Origin: Clostridiales bacterium
GTDB taxonomy: Bacteria; Bacillota; Clostridia; Acetivibrionales; DTU013
Length of the DNA: 63,049 bases
Assembly: GCA_035378685.1 (NCBI GenBank)
Contig: DAOSUL010000001.1
Location: 1-63,049 of the forward strand
Reading direction: 5' to 3'
Below are positions 5,977-58,600 of the stretch, piece by piece (the first letter of the stretch is position 1; each line of letters opens with the position of its first letter). A model generated the notes under the pieces. It had not been told where the DNA came from, did not search any database, and saw nothing but the letters and a program-made list of their open reading frames with translations. The position numbers and the translations under genes were made by a program.

Positions 5977-6118
5977 CCACAAAAAAAATACAGCGCGGTA
6001 CAGGCATCCGGGCCAAAGATGAACCGTAACAGCATCCCGCCTGATGGATGAACCGTGACGACCTCCGGCCCTGGTACTGGTATCGGATATTTAAATCCAA
6101 AACACCGCCTGATTTCAC

Positions 6119-6352
6119 AAAAGCCGTGCAGGCGGCCGATCTGCATTTGGGATTGCTTCGTTAACAGCTGCAAGCCGGCTCATCCGCTCCAATGAGGGCG
6201 CTGGTCACTCGCCGTCCATGGCTCGGGACCAGCGCCGGCAGCGTCCGTGCTGCCGGTTGTGGTTCCTGGCGCCTCATTCGAGCTGCATGAGCCGGATGCA
6301 GCTGTAAAACTCGCAGCCCATCAATGCGTGATCGGTCACCTGCACGGCTTTT
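6119..6352. repeat. Copy 1 of a ~235-nt GC-rich imperfect-palindrome repeat family (orientation A)
   Basis: Terminal arms AAAAGCCGTGCAGG / CCTGCACGGCTTTT pair perfectly. The 104-nt core (6186-6289) differs at about 7 of 104 positions from the cores at 26986-27089 and 53455-53558 (reverse complement), by hand alignment. Confidence 0.9.
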
Positions 6353-6383
6353 GCCTGAATCCTTATGCATCCGGGTGGATCAG

Positions 6384-6794
6384 TCAGCATGCCCGATACC
6401 CGGGCCGACTGCCGCTTCGTACTCTTATTTGTGCCCGAAAAGTAACGCACCCACCCGGATAGCTAATAGTCACACAGCCGCACCTGGCAAGCATCGGGCC
6501 CATGAAAATGATCGAGGAACGCATCTCAGCCGCCAGTTCGACAGGGATCCTGGTCTCGTTCAGCCCTGCCGAATTCACGATTATCACATCGTCCTCGATT
6601 TTCACGCTGCAGCCTATCTTCCGTAGTATACTGATCATAATTTCGACATCTCTTATCCTGGGACAGTTTTTGATGACGCTTTCGCCGGCGTTAAGCAAAG
6701 ATGCTGCCAAAATCGGCAATACGGCATTTTTGGAGCCTTCGATCCCAATCTCGCCCTGGAGCCTGGCGCCTCCTGTAATAACCAACCTGCTCAT
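6384..6794 (-). pseudogene. murA: Truncated murA (UDP-N-acetylglucosamine 1-carboxyvinyltransferase), N-terminal ~116 codons only
   Basis: MSRLVITGG...GSKNAVLPILAA...SYPGGC matches the MurA N-terminus up to the catalytic-Cys motif. After codon 116 (about nt 6447) the frame reads unrelated sequence and stops at 6384. Full-length MurA is about 420 aa. The start has RBS GAGGTG. Confidence 0.8.
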
Positions 6795-6843
6795 AAAAAC
6801 ACCTCGCACACATTTCATCTTATGCGTTAAATTTACAATATGT

Positions 6844-7950
6844 TCAGATTCTTTCATATGAAGAGTAGCGCGAGATGTTGAGCAGTATGCCCGCTTCTGT
6901 CATAAAGAGGACAAGGGCCGTGCCGCCGGCACTGAAGAAGGGCAATGACACGCCCGTAGGCGGTACGGAATTCGTGACGACCGCCACGTTGAAAAGACTC
7001 TGGACGGCGATCAGCGCGGTAATGCCTGAAGCTATCAGGCACCCGTAAACATCAGGCGCATGGACCGCTATTTTGATCCCCCTCCAGATAAATATGAGAA
7101 ACAGCAACATAACCAGTAATGCTCCGATGAAACCCAGTTCCTCGGCAATAATCGGAAAAATATAGTCGTTATGCGGTTCAGGAACATACAGAAACTTCTG
7201 CATGCTCTGCCCCAGGCCTCTTCCAAACAGCCCACCGGAGGCGATGGCATACAGGGACTGAATGGTCTGATAACCGCTGCCGCGCGGATCGCTCCACGGG
7301 TCGATCCAGGAATTTATTCGCGGAGTCATGTAATCGGTAAATGAAATGACGGCTATGATCATTACGACGACGGGCACGAACAATATCGCAAAATGCCTGA
7401 TTTTTGCGCCTGCCACGAACAATATTATCATGGCTATGGAAATCATGATTATAGTTGCGCTCAGATGTGTTTCCAGCAGAAGAAGCACACATATGATGCC
7501 AAGAGCAAAAAGGTACGGCATCAGGTCTCTGAAAAACGAGTCAAGCGGTCTCTTCCTCCTGGACAGATTGTATGAAAAGAACAGTATAAGCGCCAGTTTG
7601 GCCAGCTCGGACGGCTGGAACCGGACACCGGCTATCACGACCCATCTCCGGGAATCGTTCGCTTCACTGCCGATACCCGGGATCAAAACGAGTATGAGAA
7701 GGACAACGCTTACCAAAAACAACGCCCATACTGTTTTCCTGCCTATCTTGTGATAGTCGTAATTTGCCGCAAGCATCATGGAGACCATGCCGATGGCGGC
7801 AAAGACCAACTGCCTTTTAATATAATAGTATATGTTCCCTGTCTCTTTTTCAGCCATTGGGGCACTTGCGCTGAAAACCATGATAAGTCCCAGCGAAAGC
7901 AGTATCAGTACAGTTATGAACAAAATAAAATCAAACGGCTTCTTTTTCAT
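6844..7950 (-). CDS. ftsW: SEDS-family cell-division protein FtsW/SpoVE
   Basis: 368-aa polytopic membrane protein with SEDS signatures (QPSELAK, PEPHNDYIF, GVSLPFFSAGG). It sits in the dcw cluster after mraY. Confidence 0.9.
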   Translation of the reverse strand: MKKKPFDFILFITVLILLSLGLIMVFSASAPMAEKETGNIYYYIKRQLVFAAIGMVSMMLAANYDYHKIGRKTVWALFLVSVVLLILVLIPGIGSEANDSRRWVVIAGVRFQPSELAKLALILFFSYNLSRRKRPLDSFFRDLMPYLFALGIICVLLLLETHLSATIIMISIAMIILFVAGAKIRHFAILFVPVVVMIIAVISFTDYMTPRINSWIDPWSDPRGSGYQTIQSLYAIASGGLFGRGLGQSMQKFLYVPEPHNDYIFPIIAEELGFIGALLVMLLFLIFIWRGIKIAVHAPDVYGCLIASGITALIAVQSLFNVAVVTNSVPPTGVSLPFFSAGGTALVLFMTEAGILLNISRYSSYERI

Positions 7951-21969: not shown

Positions 21970-22119
21970 CAGAACCTTCCTTCCCATCACATATCTTGAT
22001 AATAATATATTATAACACTATTATCCGAAGAAAATTTTCGCATTGAAATATTTTCTCGCCAATAATTTGCGCTTTACCGGCAATAATACACTTAAGCACA
22101 CTTACCGGAGGTTCAGAAG

Positions 22120-22296
22120 ATGAGGTACACACCAAACAGAAAATACCCGATCACCCAGATGAAAAGAAACAGCCAGCCGATGAACGGCGAACGGATACTT
22201 GACATAAGTATCGGCACTGCTGCAGGACTGCTCGCCGTCACATTCCTCAAAGGCCTGTTCTGGGGATATCTGATCAGAAAGTGCCGGGGAAGATAA
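22120..22296 (+). CDS. Hypothetical 58-aa small membrane protein
   Basis: Absent from the ORF track because it is under 60 aa. GGAGG lies 9 nt upstream of the ATG. Translation is MRYTPNRKYPITQMKRNSQPMNGERILDISIGTAAGLLAVTFLKGLFWGYLIRKCRGR, with one C-terminal TM helix and a basic tail. Confidence 0.4.
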   Translation: MRYTPNRKYPITQMKRNSQPMNGERILDISIGTAAGLLAVTFLKGLFWGYLIRKCRGR

Positions 22297-22603
22297 TAAA
22301 CTGCTGTTTGAATAAGGTAATGTAAATTCAGGCATTCCCCGATATTTTATATATACAGTATCGGGAGATTGCAGATGCCGGAACGATTCCAGCAGGCAAC
22401 AGATCTTGCTTCTTTCGTCATATCGGTCTGCCTTTCATTTTGTATACTGGTACTTGCTGTTTTTTCAAAAACGCCGGGCTGAAATCGAGACTTTCCTCGT
22501 ACCCTGCAGACGGAAGGGATGCCAGGTCCCTTATCGAAGTTGCGGACAGGAGCCTCTGCAGATCAAAGGCAAAAGGCAAAAACGCATTGCCCTGCAGGGA
22601 TAT

Positions 22604-26916: not shown

Positions 26917-27152
26917 GCCGCGTAGCAGGTACGGGCAGCAGGGCATTTGAGGATGCTTCGTGTACGGCTGCATGCCGGATCATTTGCTCCAATGAGGGCG
27001 CAGGTCACTCGCCGTCCATGGCTCGGGACCAGCGCCGGCAGCATCCATGCTGCCGGTTGCGGTGCCTGTTGCCTCATTCGAGCTGCATGCCCCGGCGGCA
27101 TCCGTAACACTTGCATCCAATAATGCCTTGCTGCCCGTACCTGCTACGCGGC
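26917..27152. repeat. Copy 2 of the ~235-nt palindromic repeat family (orientation A)
   Basis: The 31-bp outer stem GCCGCGTAGCAGGTACGGGCAGCAGGGCATT / AATGCCTTGCTGCCCGTACCTGCTACGCGGC has a single G-T pair. Core is 26986-27089. Confidence 0.9.
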
Positions 27153-27220: not shown

Positions 27221-28435
27221 TCATTCATAACGCAGCGCTTCAATCGGATCAAGATCTGCCGCGCGTTTGGCCGGGTAGACTCCGAATATTATGCCAAGCG
27301 CAACAGAACCGAGAAATGCCAGTACTATGATCTTAAGGTCTACGACAGGAGGTATCTTAATCAGTGCTGATATGATGTTTCCGGCAACGACGCCCAGGAA
27401 TATGCCTGCAAGGCCGGCGCAGCCTGTCATAAGGATGGATTCGGTCAGAAACTGCAGTATGATGTCTTTCTTCTGCGCCCCAAGGGCTTTCCTGATGCCT
27501 ATCTCCCGGATCCTTTCAGTCACCGACACCAGAAGTATGTTTACAATGCCGATGCCACCGACTATCAGCGTAATGACCGCTATCACGAGAAGGATAGATG
27601 ATACGACGCCAAGCACATCGCTGAAAGCTTTCTGGATGTCGGCCGAGTTCTGGGCTATATATACGTCTTCGCTGCCATGTTTCATTTCAAGGTATTTCAC
27701 GATACGTTTGCCGACTTCCCGCAGCTTTTCTTTCTCAACCACCGTCACGTCGATGGATGACAGCCTTTCGCTGTTGGGATACAACTGCTGCACTGTCGTT
27801 ATGGGCATAAAAATACTGACAGGGATCAATTCGCTTTCCATGATGCCCTCGAACATATTCTCGCCGCTGCTCATCACACCGATTATCTTAAGCGAGACAG
27901 AAGTGCCTGATGGCGTCCTGAGCGTGATGGTTTCCCCGGTCACATCCTGAACGTCTTTAAAGAACTTCCTTGCAAAGAGCTCATCCACCACGACGAATTT
28001 CGCCCTTTTGGTCACATCGAAATCATTTATGAATCTGCCGTATTTCATTTCGATGATGCCAAAATTCTTGTACTGCGAGGATACGCCGAACACCCATGCG
28101 TCCTTTGACTGTTCATTGACACGTACAGTTCCGTTTTTCTGGATGCTGGTCGCGATATTCTTGATTTCCGGCGCCGCTTCCTTCACATAATCCATATCCT
28201 TGAGCGTCAGCCAGTCTTTCCTGTCGACGTTCCTGTTTTTATATGTGATGCTTATGGTATTGGCGCCTATTTTTTCAAACTGTGCATTCATGTAGCTTTC
28301 AGTGGCACTTCCGAGCGCCATGATCGTGATTATGGAGAATACGCCCATCACGATCCCGAGCATGGTAAGGAAGGATCGGAGTTTATTTGATTTAAGGCTG
28401 TCCAGAGCCTGTATGAAGCTTTCAGAGAAATTCAT
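27221..28435 (-). CDS. ABC transporter permease, MacB/FtsX family
   Basis: MacB_PCD-like periplasmic domain between TM1 and TM2, with C-terminal FtsX helices. Start set at the second ATG (28435) behind GAGG. Confidence 0.85.
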   Translation of the reverse strand: MNFSESFIQALDSLKSNKLRSFLTMLGIVMGVFSIITIMALGSATESYMNAQFEKIGANTISITYKNRNVDRKDWLTLKDMDYVKEAAPEIKNIATSIQKNGTVRVNEQSKDAWVFGVSSQYKNFGIIEMKYGRFINDFDVTKRAKFVVVDELFARKFFKDVQDVTGETITLRTPSGTSVSLKIIGVMSSGENMFEGIMESELIPVSIFMPITTVQQLYPNSERLSSIDVTVVEKEKLREVGKRIVKYLEMKHGSEDVYIAQNSADIQKAFSDVLGVVSSILLVIAVITLIVGGIGIVNILLVSVTERIREIGIRKALGAQKKDIILQFLTESILMTGCAGLAGIFLGVVAGNIISALIKIPPVVDLKIIVLAFLGSVALGIIFGVYPAKRAADLDPIEALRYE

Positions 28436-28470
28436 CTGCATACCTCGCTTCTTTCCGGTTGGGCTGCCTG

Positions 28471-29733
28471 TCAATACTGCTGTTTCACCCTTACTTTCAT
28501 CCCGTCGCTGTAGCTGGGCTGAGGGTCGATGACAACAAGTTCTCCTTCTTCAAGCCCATCCAGGATCTCAACGCTCATGTCCGAATTGATGCCGGCTTCT
28601 ATCCGGCGCTGCTCGATCCTGTTCGTTTCAGTATCGATAACGAATACCATCAGGTTGTCGTCCCTGTCAGGTTTTATCGCTTCCATAGGCGCCAGCAGGA
28701 CTCCGTTTTTATCCACCGTTATGATCTCGCAGGTGACATTGAGACCAGGTTTAAGAACGCCTTTTGAGTCATCCACTCCAATGATTATCTCCACCACTGT
28801 CTCGCTCCCGCCGGATGTCACTGCCGTGGTGGCCACGGGAGAAATGCTCTCAACGGTTCCTGTTATCTCCGTATTCTTATCGATCGCATCCCCCGTCACT
28901 CTCGCCTTCTGTCCGACCGCCACGTTCTTTATATCGTACTCGTTTACTCTGGCCCGTATCCGCAGCTTATCCGGATCTATGATCCTGTATGCCGGCTGCA
29001 TGCTTCCGGTATACGCCCCTTCCTGGACGTTCACTGCCGCGACGACTCCTTCCATGGCAGCCATGCACATTTCATTTATGTCGTTTATCTTCTTTTCAAG
29101 GTCGGAAATCTGTAAATCCGTGACCTTTATATTTTCTTCAGCTGTTTTTCTTGAGTTGTTCCTGCTTTCTACAGCAGCCTCATAAGCCAGCCTGGCATTC
29201 TCAATGGCCGATTCGGCTTCCCTGAACTGCTTTTCCGACATTTCCATCTCGGCTTTCGAAATAGCACTTGCCTCATACAGTGCCTTATTGTCTTCATACG
29301 CCTTTTTTGCGTCATTATAGTTCCTTTCGGCAGCTTTCAGGCTGTTGAGGGCTCTTTGGACCTCTGCGTCGCCGGCTTTGGAATCCAGCGCTATCTGCTG
29401 GGTCCTCCTGTTGCTCTTCAATGTTTCGAGCCTGGAGTACATCTCGCTCATGTCCACCTCAATAAGCTGCTGGCCTTGTTTTACCCGCTGGCCCTCGGTG
29501 ATCATCACCCTCGTCACTTTCAGCGGCGTGTCGAAATATGCCTCTGACTTCTTTGTTTCCTCGACGACGCCGTCCGCATATATCCATGAAGAAAGATCTC
29601 CTTTCACAACTGCAGCGGCCTGTACGCTGACCGCGCCCGAACCTGCCGTACCCGCAGCCTGCATTGCACCGGCCGTGACAAGGACAGCTGATGATATCAC
29701 CAGTATGCTTGCGATAATCACCTTTTTCCTCAT
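28471..29733 (-). CDS. Efflux periplasmic adaptor (HlyD/MacA family)
   Basis: 420 aa with an N-terminal anchor, a long coiled-coil hairpin and beta-barrel regions. Lies in an operon with MacB-type components. Confidence 0.85.
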   Translation of the reverse strand: MRKKVIIASILVISSAVLVTAGAMQAAGTAGSGAVSVQAAAVVKGDLSSWIYADGVVEETKKSEAYFDTPLKVTRVMITEGQRVKQGQQLIEVDMSEMYSRLETLKSNRRTQQIALDSKAGDAEVQRALNSLKAAERNYNDAKKAYEDNKALYEASAISKAEMEMSEKQFREAESAIENARLAYEAAVESRNNSRKTAEENIKVTDLQISDLEKKINDINEMCMAAMEGVVAAVNVQEGAYTGSMQPAYRIIDPDKLRIRARVNEYDIKNVAVGQKARVTGDAIDKNTEITGTVESISPVATTAVTSGGSETVVEIIIGVDDSKGVLKPGLNVTCEIITVDKNGVLLAPMEAIKPDRDDNLMVFVIDTETNRIEQRRIEAGINSDMSVEILDGLEEGELVVIDPQPSYSDGMKVRVKQQY

Positions 29734-29778
29734 TGCATAACCTCCGTAAATGACTGTCGTGAGAGCGCCGTGCCGCAG

Positions 29779-30546
29779 TTACATCAGCTGCAGCGCCGCA
29801 GGCATGCCGTACATGGTACAGGCAACACGAATGGCAAAAATTACGGCTACCGCTATGTAAACCTGTTTCTTTTTCAGTTTGCTGACGGCAGTTAATCCTA
29901 TGGCCATTACAGAGTATCTCCATATGGCAAAAACGTCGATACCCGCAAGGAGCCCGTAAACATACGGGTTCATTTCTTCAGGCGACGCAAGGGAAGCCAG
30001 GCTCGTCAATGGCGCTGCCTGGTGCAGGCTTCCCGTATAGAATGAAACGGCTGTCAGCAACAGGCTGTACAAAACAGGTATGATACCCGCATGTACCACA
30101 ACGGAGAGGTATGCTTTGTATTTGCCCTCCCCTCCCATGATCCTTAGTATGATGAAAAACAGCAAAGCCATAAGGGCAAACCCTGCAGCCGCATAGACGG
30201 GCGCTGTCACGATCCCTGTAACAACTGCGCGGGGCAATCCTGCTTCTATCATCTCCGGCGTCATCTCGATGCCGAAGGATTCCATGTACTCAGAACCGGC
30301 AGCGATCGACTTCCTCAGCATTTCCTCGTATACAGGCCTCCTTACTGCATAGGGAACTGCGGCTGCCAATGAACCAAAAACCATCCAGAACAGCACTCTT
30401 GGCTTCCCGGCCAGTTCCTCCATCAGCCTGCCCGGTGAGACGAACAGCCACATAAGCCTTTTGAAAAACCCCGGCTTTTCGACGGCCATTTCCCGATCCA
30501 TGCTCTGTACCCGGATATCAGACAAGTTATCAGCCTCTTTCTTCAC
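29779..30546 (-). CDS. Yip1-domain integral membrane protein
   Basis: 255 aa with five hydrophobic helices in a Yip1/DUF1282-like arrangement. Located between the ABC ATPase and the adaptor. Confidence 0.6.
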   Translation of the reverse strand: MKKEADNLSDIRVQSMDREMAVEKPGFFKRLMWLFVSPGRLMEELAGKPRVLFWMVFGSLAAAVPYAVRRPVYEEMLRKSIAAGSEYMESFGIEMTPEMIEAGLPRAVVTGIVTAPVYAAAGFALMALLFFIILRIMGGEGKYKAYLSVVVHAGIIPVLYSLLLTAVSFYTGSLHQAAPLTSLASLASPEEMNPYVYGLLAGIDVFAIWRYSVMAIGLTAVSKLKKKQVYIAVAVIFAIRVACTMYGMPAALQLM

Positions 30547-30604
30547 TTCACAATATAAATCTCGTTATATGAACAGGATCCGGACAGGATGCAGGCGTAT
30601 GCTG

Positions 30605-31339
30605 TCAGCCCGCAGCCTGTGCCTGCAGTTTTCTTATCACTTCCCTGGCGTCTGTCGGATCATCGACCCTTTCATCGCTTATGATCCTGCCATCCCTGAA
30701 CCTGATGATGCGCCCGGTATGCATAGCTATGTCTGGCTCGTGCGTGACAAGGATGATGGTGACTCCTTCCCTGTTCAGTTCCTGGAATACTGCCATTATG
30801 TCTTCTCCCGACGCCGTGTCGAGGTTCCCGGTTGGCTCATCGGCAAGAAGGATGGCCGGGTCGTTCACGAGAGCCCTTGCGATGGCGACCCTCTGCTTCT
30901 GGCCGCCGGATAGCTCATTGGGCCTGTGATCCATCCTTTCCAGCAGCCCCACCTTCCTGAGCGCTTCAACAGCCTTTTCCCTGCGTTCTTTTTTTCCTGC
31001 TCCTGCATATATCATGGGAAGTTCCACGTTTTGAAGCGCGTTCATTTTTGGAAGCAGATTGAATGACTGGAACACGAACCCTATTTTTTTATTTCTTATC
31101 CTGGCCAGTTCAGTATCATCAAGCTGTGAAATATTGACGCCGTCCAGTTCGTAATATCCGCTCGTCGCCCTGTCAAGGCATCCGAGTATGTTCATCAGCG
31201 TCGACTTCCCCGATCCCGACGGACCCATGACGGCGACGAACTCCCCTTTGCTGATGCGGAGGTCGACGTCCTTCAGGGCTTCCACCTGCACCTTGCCTGT
31301 GTCATATATCTTTCCTATGCCTTCCATCCTGATGATCAT
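30605..31339 (-). CDS. ABC transporter ATP-binding protein (MacB/LolD type)
   Basis: Walker A GPSGSGKST, signature LSGGQKQR and Walker B LLADEPTGNLD. Confidence 0.95.
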   Translation of the reverse strand: MIIRMEGIGKIYDTGKVQVEALKDVDLRISKGEFVAVMGPSGSGKSTLMNILGCLDRATSGYYELDGVNISQLDDTELARIRNKKIGFVFQSFNLLPKMNALQNVELPMIYAGAGKKERREKAVEALRKVGLLERMDHRPNELSGGQKQRVAIARALVNDPAILLADEPTGNLDTASGEDIMAVFQELNREGVTIILVTHEPDIAMHTGRIIRFRDGRIISDERVDDPTDAREVIRKLQAQAAG

Positions 31340-53391: not shown

Positions 53392-53626
53392 GCGAAGCCG
53401 TGATGCAGGCCGGCAGGCATCAATGGGCTGCGAGTGTTACAAATGCGGCCGGGTCATGCAGCTCGAATGAGGTGTCAGGCACCTCAACCGGCAGCATGGA
53501 CGCTGCCGGCGCTGGTCCCGAGCCATGGACGGCGAGTGACCTGCGCCCTCATTGGAGCAAATGAGCCGGCCAGCAGTTGTGCACGAAGCACCCCTGATGC
53601 ATGACCTGCCTGCATCACGGCTTCGC
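53392..53626. repeat. Copy 3 of the ~235-nt palindromic repeat family (orientation B, inverted relative to copies 1 and 2)
   Basis: Terminal arms GCGAAGCCGTGATGCAGGC / GCCTGCATCACGGCTTCGC pair perfectly. Core 53455-53558 is the reverse complement of the cores of copies 1 and 2. Confidence 0.9.
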
Positions 53627-58280: not shown

Positions 58281-58325
58281 AAAATAAAAAAGCTTTCATC
58301 CCCAGCATAAGGGACAAAAGCTTTT
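58281..58325 (-). terminator. T-box expression-platform terminator
   Basis: Minus strand reads AAAAGCTTT ... GAAAGCTTTTTTATTTT, directly 3-prime of the T-box sequence. Confidence 0.75.
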
Positions 58326-58600
58326 GACTTCTGCGGTGCCACCCTGATTGACGGAAAAACCGTCCTCTCGTTTTTGCATACTGACATATGCAACCCTGCT
58401 GATAACGGGCAGGTCCCCCGTAAGCGCCTACTCTTGCATTGAATTTCAGGCTTCCCTCACAGGTCCATTCGGCACGGCCCTGCAACCGCATTCCCACCAT
58501 CTGCGCCGGTATCCCAGACCATCGGCCCGTTCCGGCAAGCGGCTCTCTGAATACAGGTTTCCGTACTTACTTCTCCTGCTCATCGGTGTGTTATGTATTC
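58281..58600 (-). promoter_or_regulatory. T-box riboswitch leader, Trp (UGG) specifier, controlling trpBADCF
   Basis: Canonical elements occur in order on the minus strand. These are the AGAGAG box (58548-58543), distal-loop GGTGGGAA, specifier GAA-UGG-A (UGG at 58467-58465), AGTA box, F-box CCGTTA and T-box AATCAGGGTGGCACCGCAG (58350-58331), followed by the terminator. Confidence 0.85.

Follow-up and report, generated by a model that had tools for sequence, protein, structure and literature searches.

Introduction

The RNA motif TwoAYGGAY (Rfam RF01731) carries two adjacent hairpins with AYGGAY loops on a long closing stem, P1. Weinberg et al. have described it in 2010 from Clostridia, gamma-proteobacteria and gut metagenomes (PMC2864571), and in their supplement P1 is said to be "often very large (e.g., 24 base pairs)". 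It has been an orphan motif since then, and the sole published idea of its function, CsrA sequestration in Clostridia, is a proposal. In their treatment of this motif, Gardner and Eldai (2015; PMC4333381) have matched a CsrA-binding-site model to both of its loops, have proposed it as a CsrA-sequestering small RNA (sRNA) of Clostridia, and have found the external stem of the Rfam model to be poorly conserved. The present report concerns a quasi-palindromic element of ~235 nucleotides (nt) that occurs three times in a 63,049-nt stretch of a Clostridiales bacterium (contig DAOSUL010000001.1, positions 1 to 63,049; the whole stretch is called the window below). With high confidence, the three loci belong to a lineage-specific, multi-copy, long-stem subfamily of TwoAYGGAY, and are old, vertically inherited, individually conserved quasi-palindromes that were not recently transposed.

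In these copies a TwoAYGGAY-like apex sits on a stem two to three times the usual length and scores just below the curated threshold. As far as checked, this ~235-nt, long-stem, high-density subfamily of digester Clostridia, missed by the Rfam threshold, is new. Also new as far as checked are its persistence at orthologous sites, the rewriting of its stem in place, the flipping of the whole unit, and the lack of strand bias. The subfamily offers a natural experiment with dozens of paralogues and with orthologues from several species, in which the apex is near-frozen, the stem changes by compensated substitutions and the unit flips; it separates the required parts (loops and junction) from those that are merely structural. 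Whether long Rfam "stems" of such kind are kept by RNA selection or by the mechanics of DNA palindromes is a question that it also brings up. On the practical side, the element escapes the Rfam threshold and breaks metagenome assemblies of digester Clostridia.

Three Copies of a Long Hairpin in the Window

A preliminary description of the window had reported a GC-rich hairpin of ~235 nt in three copies, and this is borne out with essentially the same coordinates. The three top-scoring inverted repeats of the window are imperfect palindromes of 235-236 nt at 6118-6353, 26917-27152 and 53392-53626, the last being inverted. A 32-nt core string occurs exactly three times in the window, the third time on the opposite strand, against 0 occurrences expected from shuffles. 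The GC content of the elements is 0.62-0.64 versus 0.48-0.51 in the 500-nt flanks. Each copy is predicted to fold into a single long rod of -149 to -158 kcal/mol (z = -11.6 to -13.4), with equally stable folds in 0/200 shuffles, and the predicted fold is as strong on one strand as on the other. The parts of the three copies are as follows.

6118..6353, minus strand (the TwoAYGGAY sense, same direction as the flanking genes): copy 1, whole palindrome, from inverted repeat and fold
6118-6141/6330-6353: copy 1, arms from the inverted-repeat search
6199..6256, minus strand: copy 1, apical module, RF01731 at 38.5 bits, E 8.8e-5, model positions 49-108; also a separate inverted repeat
6235-6256: copy 1, predicted hairpin 1, loop 6243-6248, ACGGAC on the minus strand
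6197-6236: copy 1, predicted hairpin 2, loop 6214-6219, AUGGAC on the minus strand
26917..27152, minus strand (sense, same direction as the flanking genes): copy 2, whole element, from inverted repeat and fold (z = -13.4)
26917-26971/27098-27152: copy 2, arms from the inverted-repeat search
26965..27106, minus strand: copy 2, full-model match covering both AYGGAY hairpins and part of P1, RF01731 at 38.5 bits, E 8.4e-5, model positions 1-168
53392..53626, plus strand (sense, antisense to the flanking minus-strand genes): copy 3, whole element, from inverted repeat and fold (z = -11.9)
53392-53413/53605-53626: copy 3, arms from the inverted-repeat search
53488..53545, plus strand: copy 3, apical module, RF01731 at 36.0 bits, E 3.3e-4; the loop pattern matches
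53488-53509, plus strand: copy 3, predicted hairpin 1, loop AUGGAC
~53508-53547, plus strand: copy 3, predicted hairpin 2, loop 53525-53530, AUGGAC

The arms of copy 1 are AAAAGCCGTGCAGG/CCTGCACGGCTTTT. Those of copy 3 read GCCGTG-ATG-CAGG/CCTG-CAT-CACGGC, with a 3-nt insertion that is matched in the opposite arm; these details had been given correctly before. Copy 2 had been credited with a 31-bp (base-pair) outer stem of largely different sequence. This stem does differ in sequence from that of copies 1 and 3, and it runs for ~24 bp up to the first mismatch.

The Apex and Its Match to TwoAYGGAY

Permissive scans of all three copies have returned RF01731 as the best Rfam match, at 36-38.5 bits against a gathering score of 43 bits; the E-values of ~1e-4 refer to the ~370-nt stretches that were scanned. 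Each match fell on the strand with the AYGGAY loops, which is the plus strand in copy 3 and the minus strand in the other two. All three apices thus match a described family, though below its threshold, and therefore the element is not unrecognised, nor is it without an Rfam-type family, as the preliminary description had it. In the predicted apex two hairpins, each with a hexaloop closed by a C-G pair, emerge from a three-way junction. One loop is AUGGAC, and the other is ACGGAC, AUGGAU and AUGGAC in copies 1, 2 and 3. A P1 closing stem of ~55 pairs is predicted for the consensus as well as for every copy. Gardner and Eldai (2015) cite, as a TwoAYGGAY trait, tandem G-A pairs in the stem of one hairpin. 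Hairpin 2 of the present element (GCUGGUCCCGAGCC/GGCGAGUGACCAGC) has, by eye, a G-A/A-G step beside a C-U mismatch; the columns are invariant, so they show no covariation, and the position of the step relative to the loop is unlike that in Lachnospiraceae copies.

The subfamily shares with TwoAYGGAY the two adjacent AYGGAY-loop hairpins, the long P1 and the occurrence in Clostridia. It differs in its closing stem (~55 pairs versus the ~24-bp example of 2010), its length (~235 nt versus ~120-170 nt) and its high density (three copies per 63 kb). Inversion between orthologues and a missing G-U bias, both discussed below, were not found described for the motif. What counts against the assignment is that RF01731 has no match in the window at the gathering threshold and that 0/15 subfamily loci pass it. 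Canonical TwoAYGGAY copies found by loop pattern in Lachnospiraceae and Pseudomonas (L105, L037 and L003) score 59-137 bits.

Conservation of the Loops and Compensatory Change in the Stem

Metagenome contigs were scanned with a 33-nt subfamily pattern in which two positions were free, so that the other columns of the pattern are conserved by ascertainment. The scan gave 34 loci, which reduce to ~25 distinct copies; every locus came from a bioreactor or an anaerobic digester. A near-identical apex was found in the metagenome-assembled genome (MAG) "Clostridiaceae AS22ysBPME_286" (L114). Twenty-three distinct copies were aligned for the statistics of conservation and pairing, and the conclusions drawn from them are based on columns that the pattern did not fix. 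Mean pairwise identity rises from the ends to the centre.

Outer arms: 0.49
Mid stem: 0.77
Centre, columns not in the search pattern: 0.89
Columns of the search pattern (conserved by ascertainment): 0.99

The loop of hairpin 2, itself part of the search pattern, is AUGGAC in 23/23 copies. The loop of hairpin 1 lies outside the pattern and reads ACGGAC in 8, AUGGAU in 6, AUGGAC in 6, ACGGAU in 2 and AGGGAU in 1 of the 23 copies; apart from the single AGGGAU, its variation is confined to the Y positions.

The preliminary description had held, from three copies, that pairing is preserved while the arms diverge, and with 23 copies the case is stronger. RNAalifold predicts 73 pairs, and 32/73 show compensatory double changes versus 19 in shuffles. 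Paired cells amount to 94.8% versus 86.3% in shuffles, and cells with double changes to 156 versus 45 in shuffles and 18-31 in slid-partner controls; on no measure did any of the 500 shuffles attain the observed value (0/500). In the outermost helix covariation is seen in 15/15 pairs. The same is observed between orthologues, where the stem is rewritten in place: 9 compensated pairs separate copy 1 of the window from L155, 11 separate L178 from L155, and 15 separate copy 3 of the window from L176.

Two other accounts of these substitutions were tried and rejected. A coding element is not indicated: several frames are open through the GC-rich core on both strands, none stands out, and the substitutions are compensatory, not codon-like. 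Templating of the outer arms from the local flank by fold-back was considered for L155 and L176, whose arms look by eye like sequence that is flank in the window, and the local alignments were no better than those of shuffles (69/500 and 190/500 shuffles did as well).

Orthologous Loci, Age and Inversion

The element is present at all three window sites in related species, between flanks that are 77-88% identical. The counterparts are as follows.

Locus 1: L178, and L155 with two tandem copies
Locus 2: L169
Locus 3: L176 and L162/L179; L165 and L184 are from the same species as the window

When the ~170-nt core is compared, the nearest neighbour of window copies 1 and 2 is the orthologue; for copy 3 the orthologue comes second (0.912 versus 0.918 for L152). 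Most orthologues also have the hairpin-1 loop variant in common, L176 at locus 3 being different. Therefore the copies are old and have been passed on vertically, without homogenisation by concerted evolution. No empty site was found among the orthologous loci of the 3-4 related species examined. A seeming empty site at rpsB, L183 with its shorter intergenic region, was rejected as an assembly break exactly between the two apical hairpins.

These observations bear on whether the element could be a miniature inverted-repeat transposable element (MITE) mobilised by a transposase with specificity for its ends, a reading entertained in the preliminary description. Like MITEs such as Correia and RUP in size, copy number and hairpin potential, it is also intergenic, palindromic and present in both orientations, and several copies lie at contig ends. 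MITEs have conserved terminal inverted repeats, whereas the ends of the element are its most variable part (49% identity). All orthologous sites are occupied in the 3-4 related species and orthologues are most alike; no flanking direct repeat of at least 3 nt is seen by eye at the three window copies, in agreement with the earlier statement that target-site duplications are lacking; and neither arm-only hairpins, which might have served as insertion targets, nor empty ones occur in the window. A MITE origin is scarcely credible on this evidence.

At L178 (locus 1) and L169 (locus 2), two orthologous loci from one contig, Ga0209537_1000143, the flanks are collinear with those of the window and the element between them is turned round; the orthologues of locus 3 are oriented as in the window. 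Inversion was thus seen in 2 of ~8 species-level comparisons and in 0 of ~8 strain-level comparisons, which involve near-identical pairs. The arms thus act as inverted repeats through which the centre is turned round now and then. The flipped copies are as well conserved as the unflipped ones. By heuristic calls of open reading frames (ORFs), both orientations relative to the adjoining genes are common across the subfamily and in other lineages. The flips show that read-through orientation cannot be essential. An asymmetric centre found in both orientations between palindromic arms recalls the flip/flop hairpins of parvovirus inverted terminal repeats and spacer inversion. The present element differs from the viral repeats in being chromosomal, in flipping only between species, in having no replication role and in giving no evidence of rapid switching.

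Several observations on the contigs touch the structure of the repeat. More than 15 of the 34 metagenome loci have the element at a contig end, for which repeat collapse, palindromic k-mers or heterogeneity of orientation are possible reasons. Tandem duplications of the whole element are found in L155 (766-1262) and L182 (65-587), with the copies 263 and 289 nt apart. At one junction, in L150/L153, a copy is missing the outer arm. In the right flank of L179 (~2600-2750) there are two or three tandem units of CACGGCTTCTTCCTGGTTCGGG, which resemble the outer end of an arm.

Position Relative to Genes

The window is housekeeping core genome, with the dcw cluster, polA, polC, the trp operon, rpsB-tsf-pyrH-frr and infB among others. 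As had been proposed earlier, the element lies at the 3' ends of transcription units, 31-68 nt past the stop codon.

Copy 1: 31 nt past the stop of a MurA-like ORF (6384-6857, minus strand); gene for an ECF sigma factor downstream
Copy 2: 68 nt past the stop of the MacB/FtsX permease gene (27221-28474, minus strand); Orn/Lys/Arg decarboxylase downstream
Copy 3: 65 nt past the stop (53691) of trpF (PRAI); gene for RpsB downstream

Promoters and terminators were sought with crude consensus scans. A promoter-like site for the sigma-factor gene lies beyond copy 1 (5977->5948) and one for rpsB beyond copy 3 (53278->53250); the scan found none near copy 2. At none of the three copies was another terminator-like site detected between the upstream stop codon and the element. 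This position would suit an oversized bidirectional intrinsic terminator with an apex of no further function, and copy 1 has A4/T4 runs on its two sides; copies 2 and 3 have no T-run, however, and a terminator has no need of AYGGAY loops or of a ~100-nt apex that stays 89-99% identical among paralogues and between species. Such a reading is very unlikely.

Possible Function of the Element

The RsmE/CsrA consensus is C-A-N-G-G-A-N-G in a hexaloop, and both loops of every copy fit it. Their spacing could be bridged by one CsrA dimer. The Rfam clan of TwoAYGGAY is CL00106, which we take to be the Csr/Rsm clan. Because the wider family keeps the loops while the hairpin stems vary, we infer that function resides in the apex, which would be recognised as a folded single strand. 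The likeliest mechanism, held tentatively, is that of a protein-binding RNA module with CsrA-type GGA loops on a protective or terminating rod. The element, lying between the stop codon of one unit and the next promoter, would be transcribed either alone or as the 3' end of the upstream transcript. The RNA would fold into a rigid rod that shows two C-AYGGAY-G loops ~27 nt apart, the geometry of a dual CsrA/RsmE-type site, so that the apex could act as a titrating or recruiting protein-binding module and the rod could end or protect the transcript. The sequence of the stem would be free to drift provided the arms remain complementary through compensatory change, and complementarity would probably be aided by processes of the DNA palindrome, namely correction of one arm with the other as template, and inversion through the arms. 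Identity and mechanism taken together, as a compromise between the two, fall a little short of an even balance.

The sponge sRNAs of the Csr/Rsm systems (CsrB, CsrC, RsmX/Y/Z) resemble the element in presenting GGA in hairpin loops, which in the element are two sites at a spacing that one dimer could bridge. Unlike these sRNAs, which are encoded by one to three genes, the element has only two sites per copy, occurs in many dispersed copies, half of which are antisense to local transcription, and is without a promoter or terminator of its own detected by the crude scans, T-runs being present at copy 1 only.

Several results weigh against a CsrA-type RNA module. No CsrA-motif match indicating a csrA gene was found in the window or in the collected loci, and no promoter-like site belonging to the element itself was found by the consensus scans of the three copies. 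A bioRxiv preprint of 24 September 2026 (10.64898/2026.09.22.753630), as far as its abstract and term counts tell, treats TwoAYGGAY together with reverse transcriptases and has the term CsrA 0 times. The element does not keep one orientation towards its flanking genes, copy 3 being antisense and two orthologues flipped, and in about half of the cases a read-through RNA would show RUCCRU, not AYGGAY, loops. Finally, neither strand has an excess of G-U pairs, in a crude fold-based count or in an alignment-based one. On the AYGGAY strand 34 cells are G-U and 27 are A-C mismatches, both rare beside 1,555 Watson-Crick cells. An A-C mismatch on one strand is a G-U pair on the other, and such near-equality of the two is seldom the outcome of selection on a single RNA strand. 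The preliminary description had left it open whether the fold is under selection or is copied as a hairpin; this was the right question, and the parity of G-U and A-C together with the flips points to a DNA-palindrome stem.

A palindromic repeat acting at the DNA level, comparable to ERIC, REP and BIME, ranks close behind and is somewhat unlikely. It would matter, or merely persist, as DNA; its arms would be kept by intrastrand template switching, arm-to-arm conversion and inversion, its apex would be bound as a single-stranded DNA (ssDNA) hairpin or as a duplex by a protein encoded elsewhere, and whatever effect it had on RNA (3'-end stabilisation or termination, for instance) would not depend on orientation. 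The strand parity just described, with both strands folding alike, argues for it, as do the inversions between collinear flanks and the presence of both orientations beside genes. The outermost arms are often perfectly complementary yet unrelated between copies, tandem duplicates exist (L155 and L182), and contig breaks inside the element are frequent. In contrast, the conserved loops and variable hairpin stems of the wider TwoAYGGAY family indicate a folded single strand rather than a duplex site; an asymmetric apex strongly conserved for each copy in its orthologues is needless for a purely selfish or structural palindrome; the conserved internal loops of the mid stem persist, although unchecked arm-to-arm correction would remove them; and alignment of the arms with the flank, as a direct test of copying, gave no significant result. 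ERIC/IRU, REP/BIME and REPIN elements of Gram-negative bacteria are likewise dispersed, imperfect, intergenic palindromes at gene ends that are probably transcribed, occur in both orientations, are stable over long times and keep their hairpin by compensatory change. The present element has no sequence relationship to them and its host is a Clostridium-like anaerobe. Its centre is conserved and its ends vary freely, opposite to what REP and REPIN show, and no gene of the RAYT type (Y1 transposase) was seen among the ORFs of the window.

The copies might instead be RNA partners of a reverse transcriptase encoded elsewhere, in the manner of DRT or retron systems, and serve in trans as templates, scaffolds or decoys. 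The abstract of the preprint cited above names TwoAYGGAY and "reverse transcriptase", and for its text the word counts alone are known: TwoAYGGAY 52, cDNA 24, DRT 18, reverse transcriptase 14, palindrom 2 and multicopy 0, with at most one of "transposase", "recombinase", "nuclease" and "integrase" in the text. By the same counts it is without "Clostridi", "Lachnospiraceae" and "multicopy", which weighs against this reading. Unlike the non-coding RNAs of retrons and DRTs, the element has no adjoining reverse transcriptase gene. Pfam and PADLOC searches of the 55 ORFs of the window gave no transposase or reverse transcriptase, the latter being absent also from the 10 flanking genes; PADLOC returned only housekeeping PolA and PolC look-alikes, and the Pfam families listed are of the housekeeping kind, in keeping with what had been stated earlier. 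The 25 commonest Pfam families beside 13 Lachnospiraceae TwoAYGGAY loci are heterogeneous and do not include a reverse transcriptase. An all-against-all BLAST of ORFs at ~60 TwoAYGGAY-like loci found no recurrent neighbour gene but generic families such as ABC ATPases. A reverse-transcriptase partnership is therefore considered unlikely.

Further consequences would follow from either of two bolder readings, which even jointly are less likely still: an invertible rheostat or, alternatively, RNA or ssDNA substrates in trans for a reverse transcriptase encoded elsewhere. In the case of a rheostat, orientation would set what the 3' end of an operon shows, either two CsrA-type AYGGAY loops or their complement, and complement loops could form kissing contacts with the loops of sense copies. 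Dozens of self-maintaining palindromes would then form a slow-switching, heritable, genome-wide post-transcriptional rheostat. In the case of reverse-transcriptase substrates, a chromosomal repeat family would be tied to a reverse transcriptase in a new way.

Wider Occurrence and Other Observations

A loop-pattern scan of genomes has recovered canonical TwoAYGGAY in Pseudomonas, at one conserved site by mutS, and in many Lachnospiraceae. Similar two-hairpin elements were seen in Desulfuromonadales (7-10 copies per MAG), Peptococcaceae, other gamma-proteobacteria and spirochaetes. A simple stem test keeps 62/120 of these matches, and the taxa were assigned by eye. One Desulfuromonadaceae locus (L041) and one Desulfosporosinus locus (L092) were tested, and both missed the gathering threshold. 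MAGs of Desulfuromonadales and Geobacteraceae contain many copies of a hairpin of ~110 nt with two AYGGAC loops and with arms conserved between copies (L030, L034, L041, L053, L055, L056, L073, L074, L079, L082, L091, L095, L097, L112, L116, L124, L125, L128, L137 and L143).

At the Pseudomonas locus L003 (2832-2951 and 3723-3809), canonical TwoAYGGAY lies ~250 nt downstream of mutS and beside a gene for a LexA/PrtR-like repressor. A C4 antisense RNA (RF01695, 82.8 bits) is nearby, and the arrangement is common to ~14 contigs of Pseudomonas prophage regions. In Lachnospiraceae bacterium MGB1 (L105, 1-1097), two canonical copies of 137 and 88 bits stand inverted near or at both ends of a 1.1-kb contig, whose interior holds tandem partial repeats (~120 nt) of the TwoAYGGAY flank. 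From this layout it follows that TwoAYGGAY is a repeat that breaks assemblies in gut Lachnospiraceae too.

The MurA-like ORF next to copy 1 encodes 157 amino acids and covers approximately the first 115 positions of the MurA/EPSP-synthase fold. Its end is conserved in two other species (L178 and L155), and therefore the truncation is old and the ORF no fresh pseudogene. Next to copy 2, part of the MacB/HlyD ABC-transporter block is missing in a relative (L169 versus window 27260-31137). The largest unexplained gap of the window is 21991-22603, 613 nt without an ORF of at least 90 amino acids or an Rfam match at the gathering threshold. The sole Rfam match in the window at curated thresholds is a T-box leader (RF00230) at 58307-58592 on the minus strand, upstream of the trp operon, with 93.3 bits versus a gathering score of 93.

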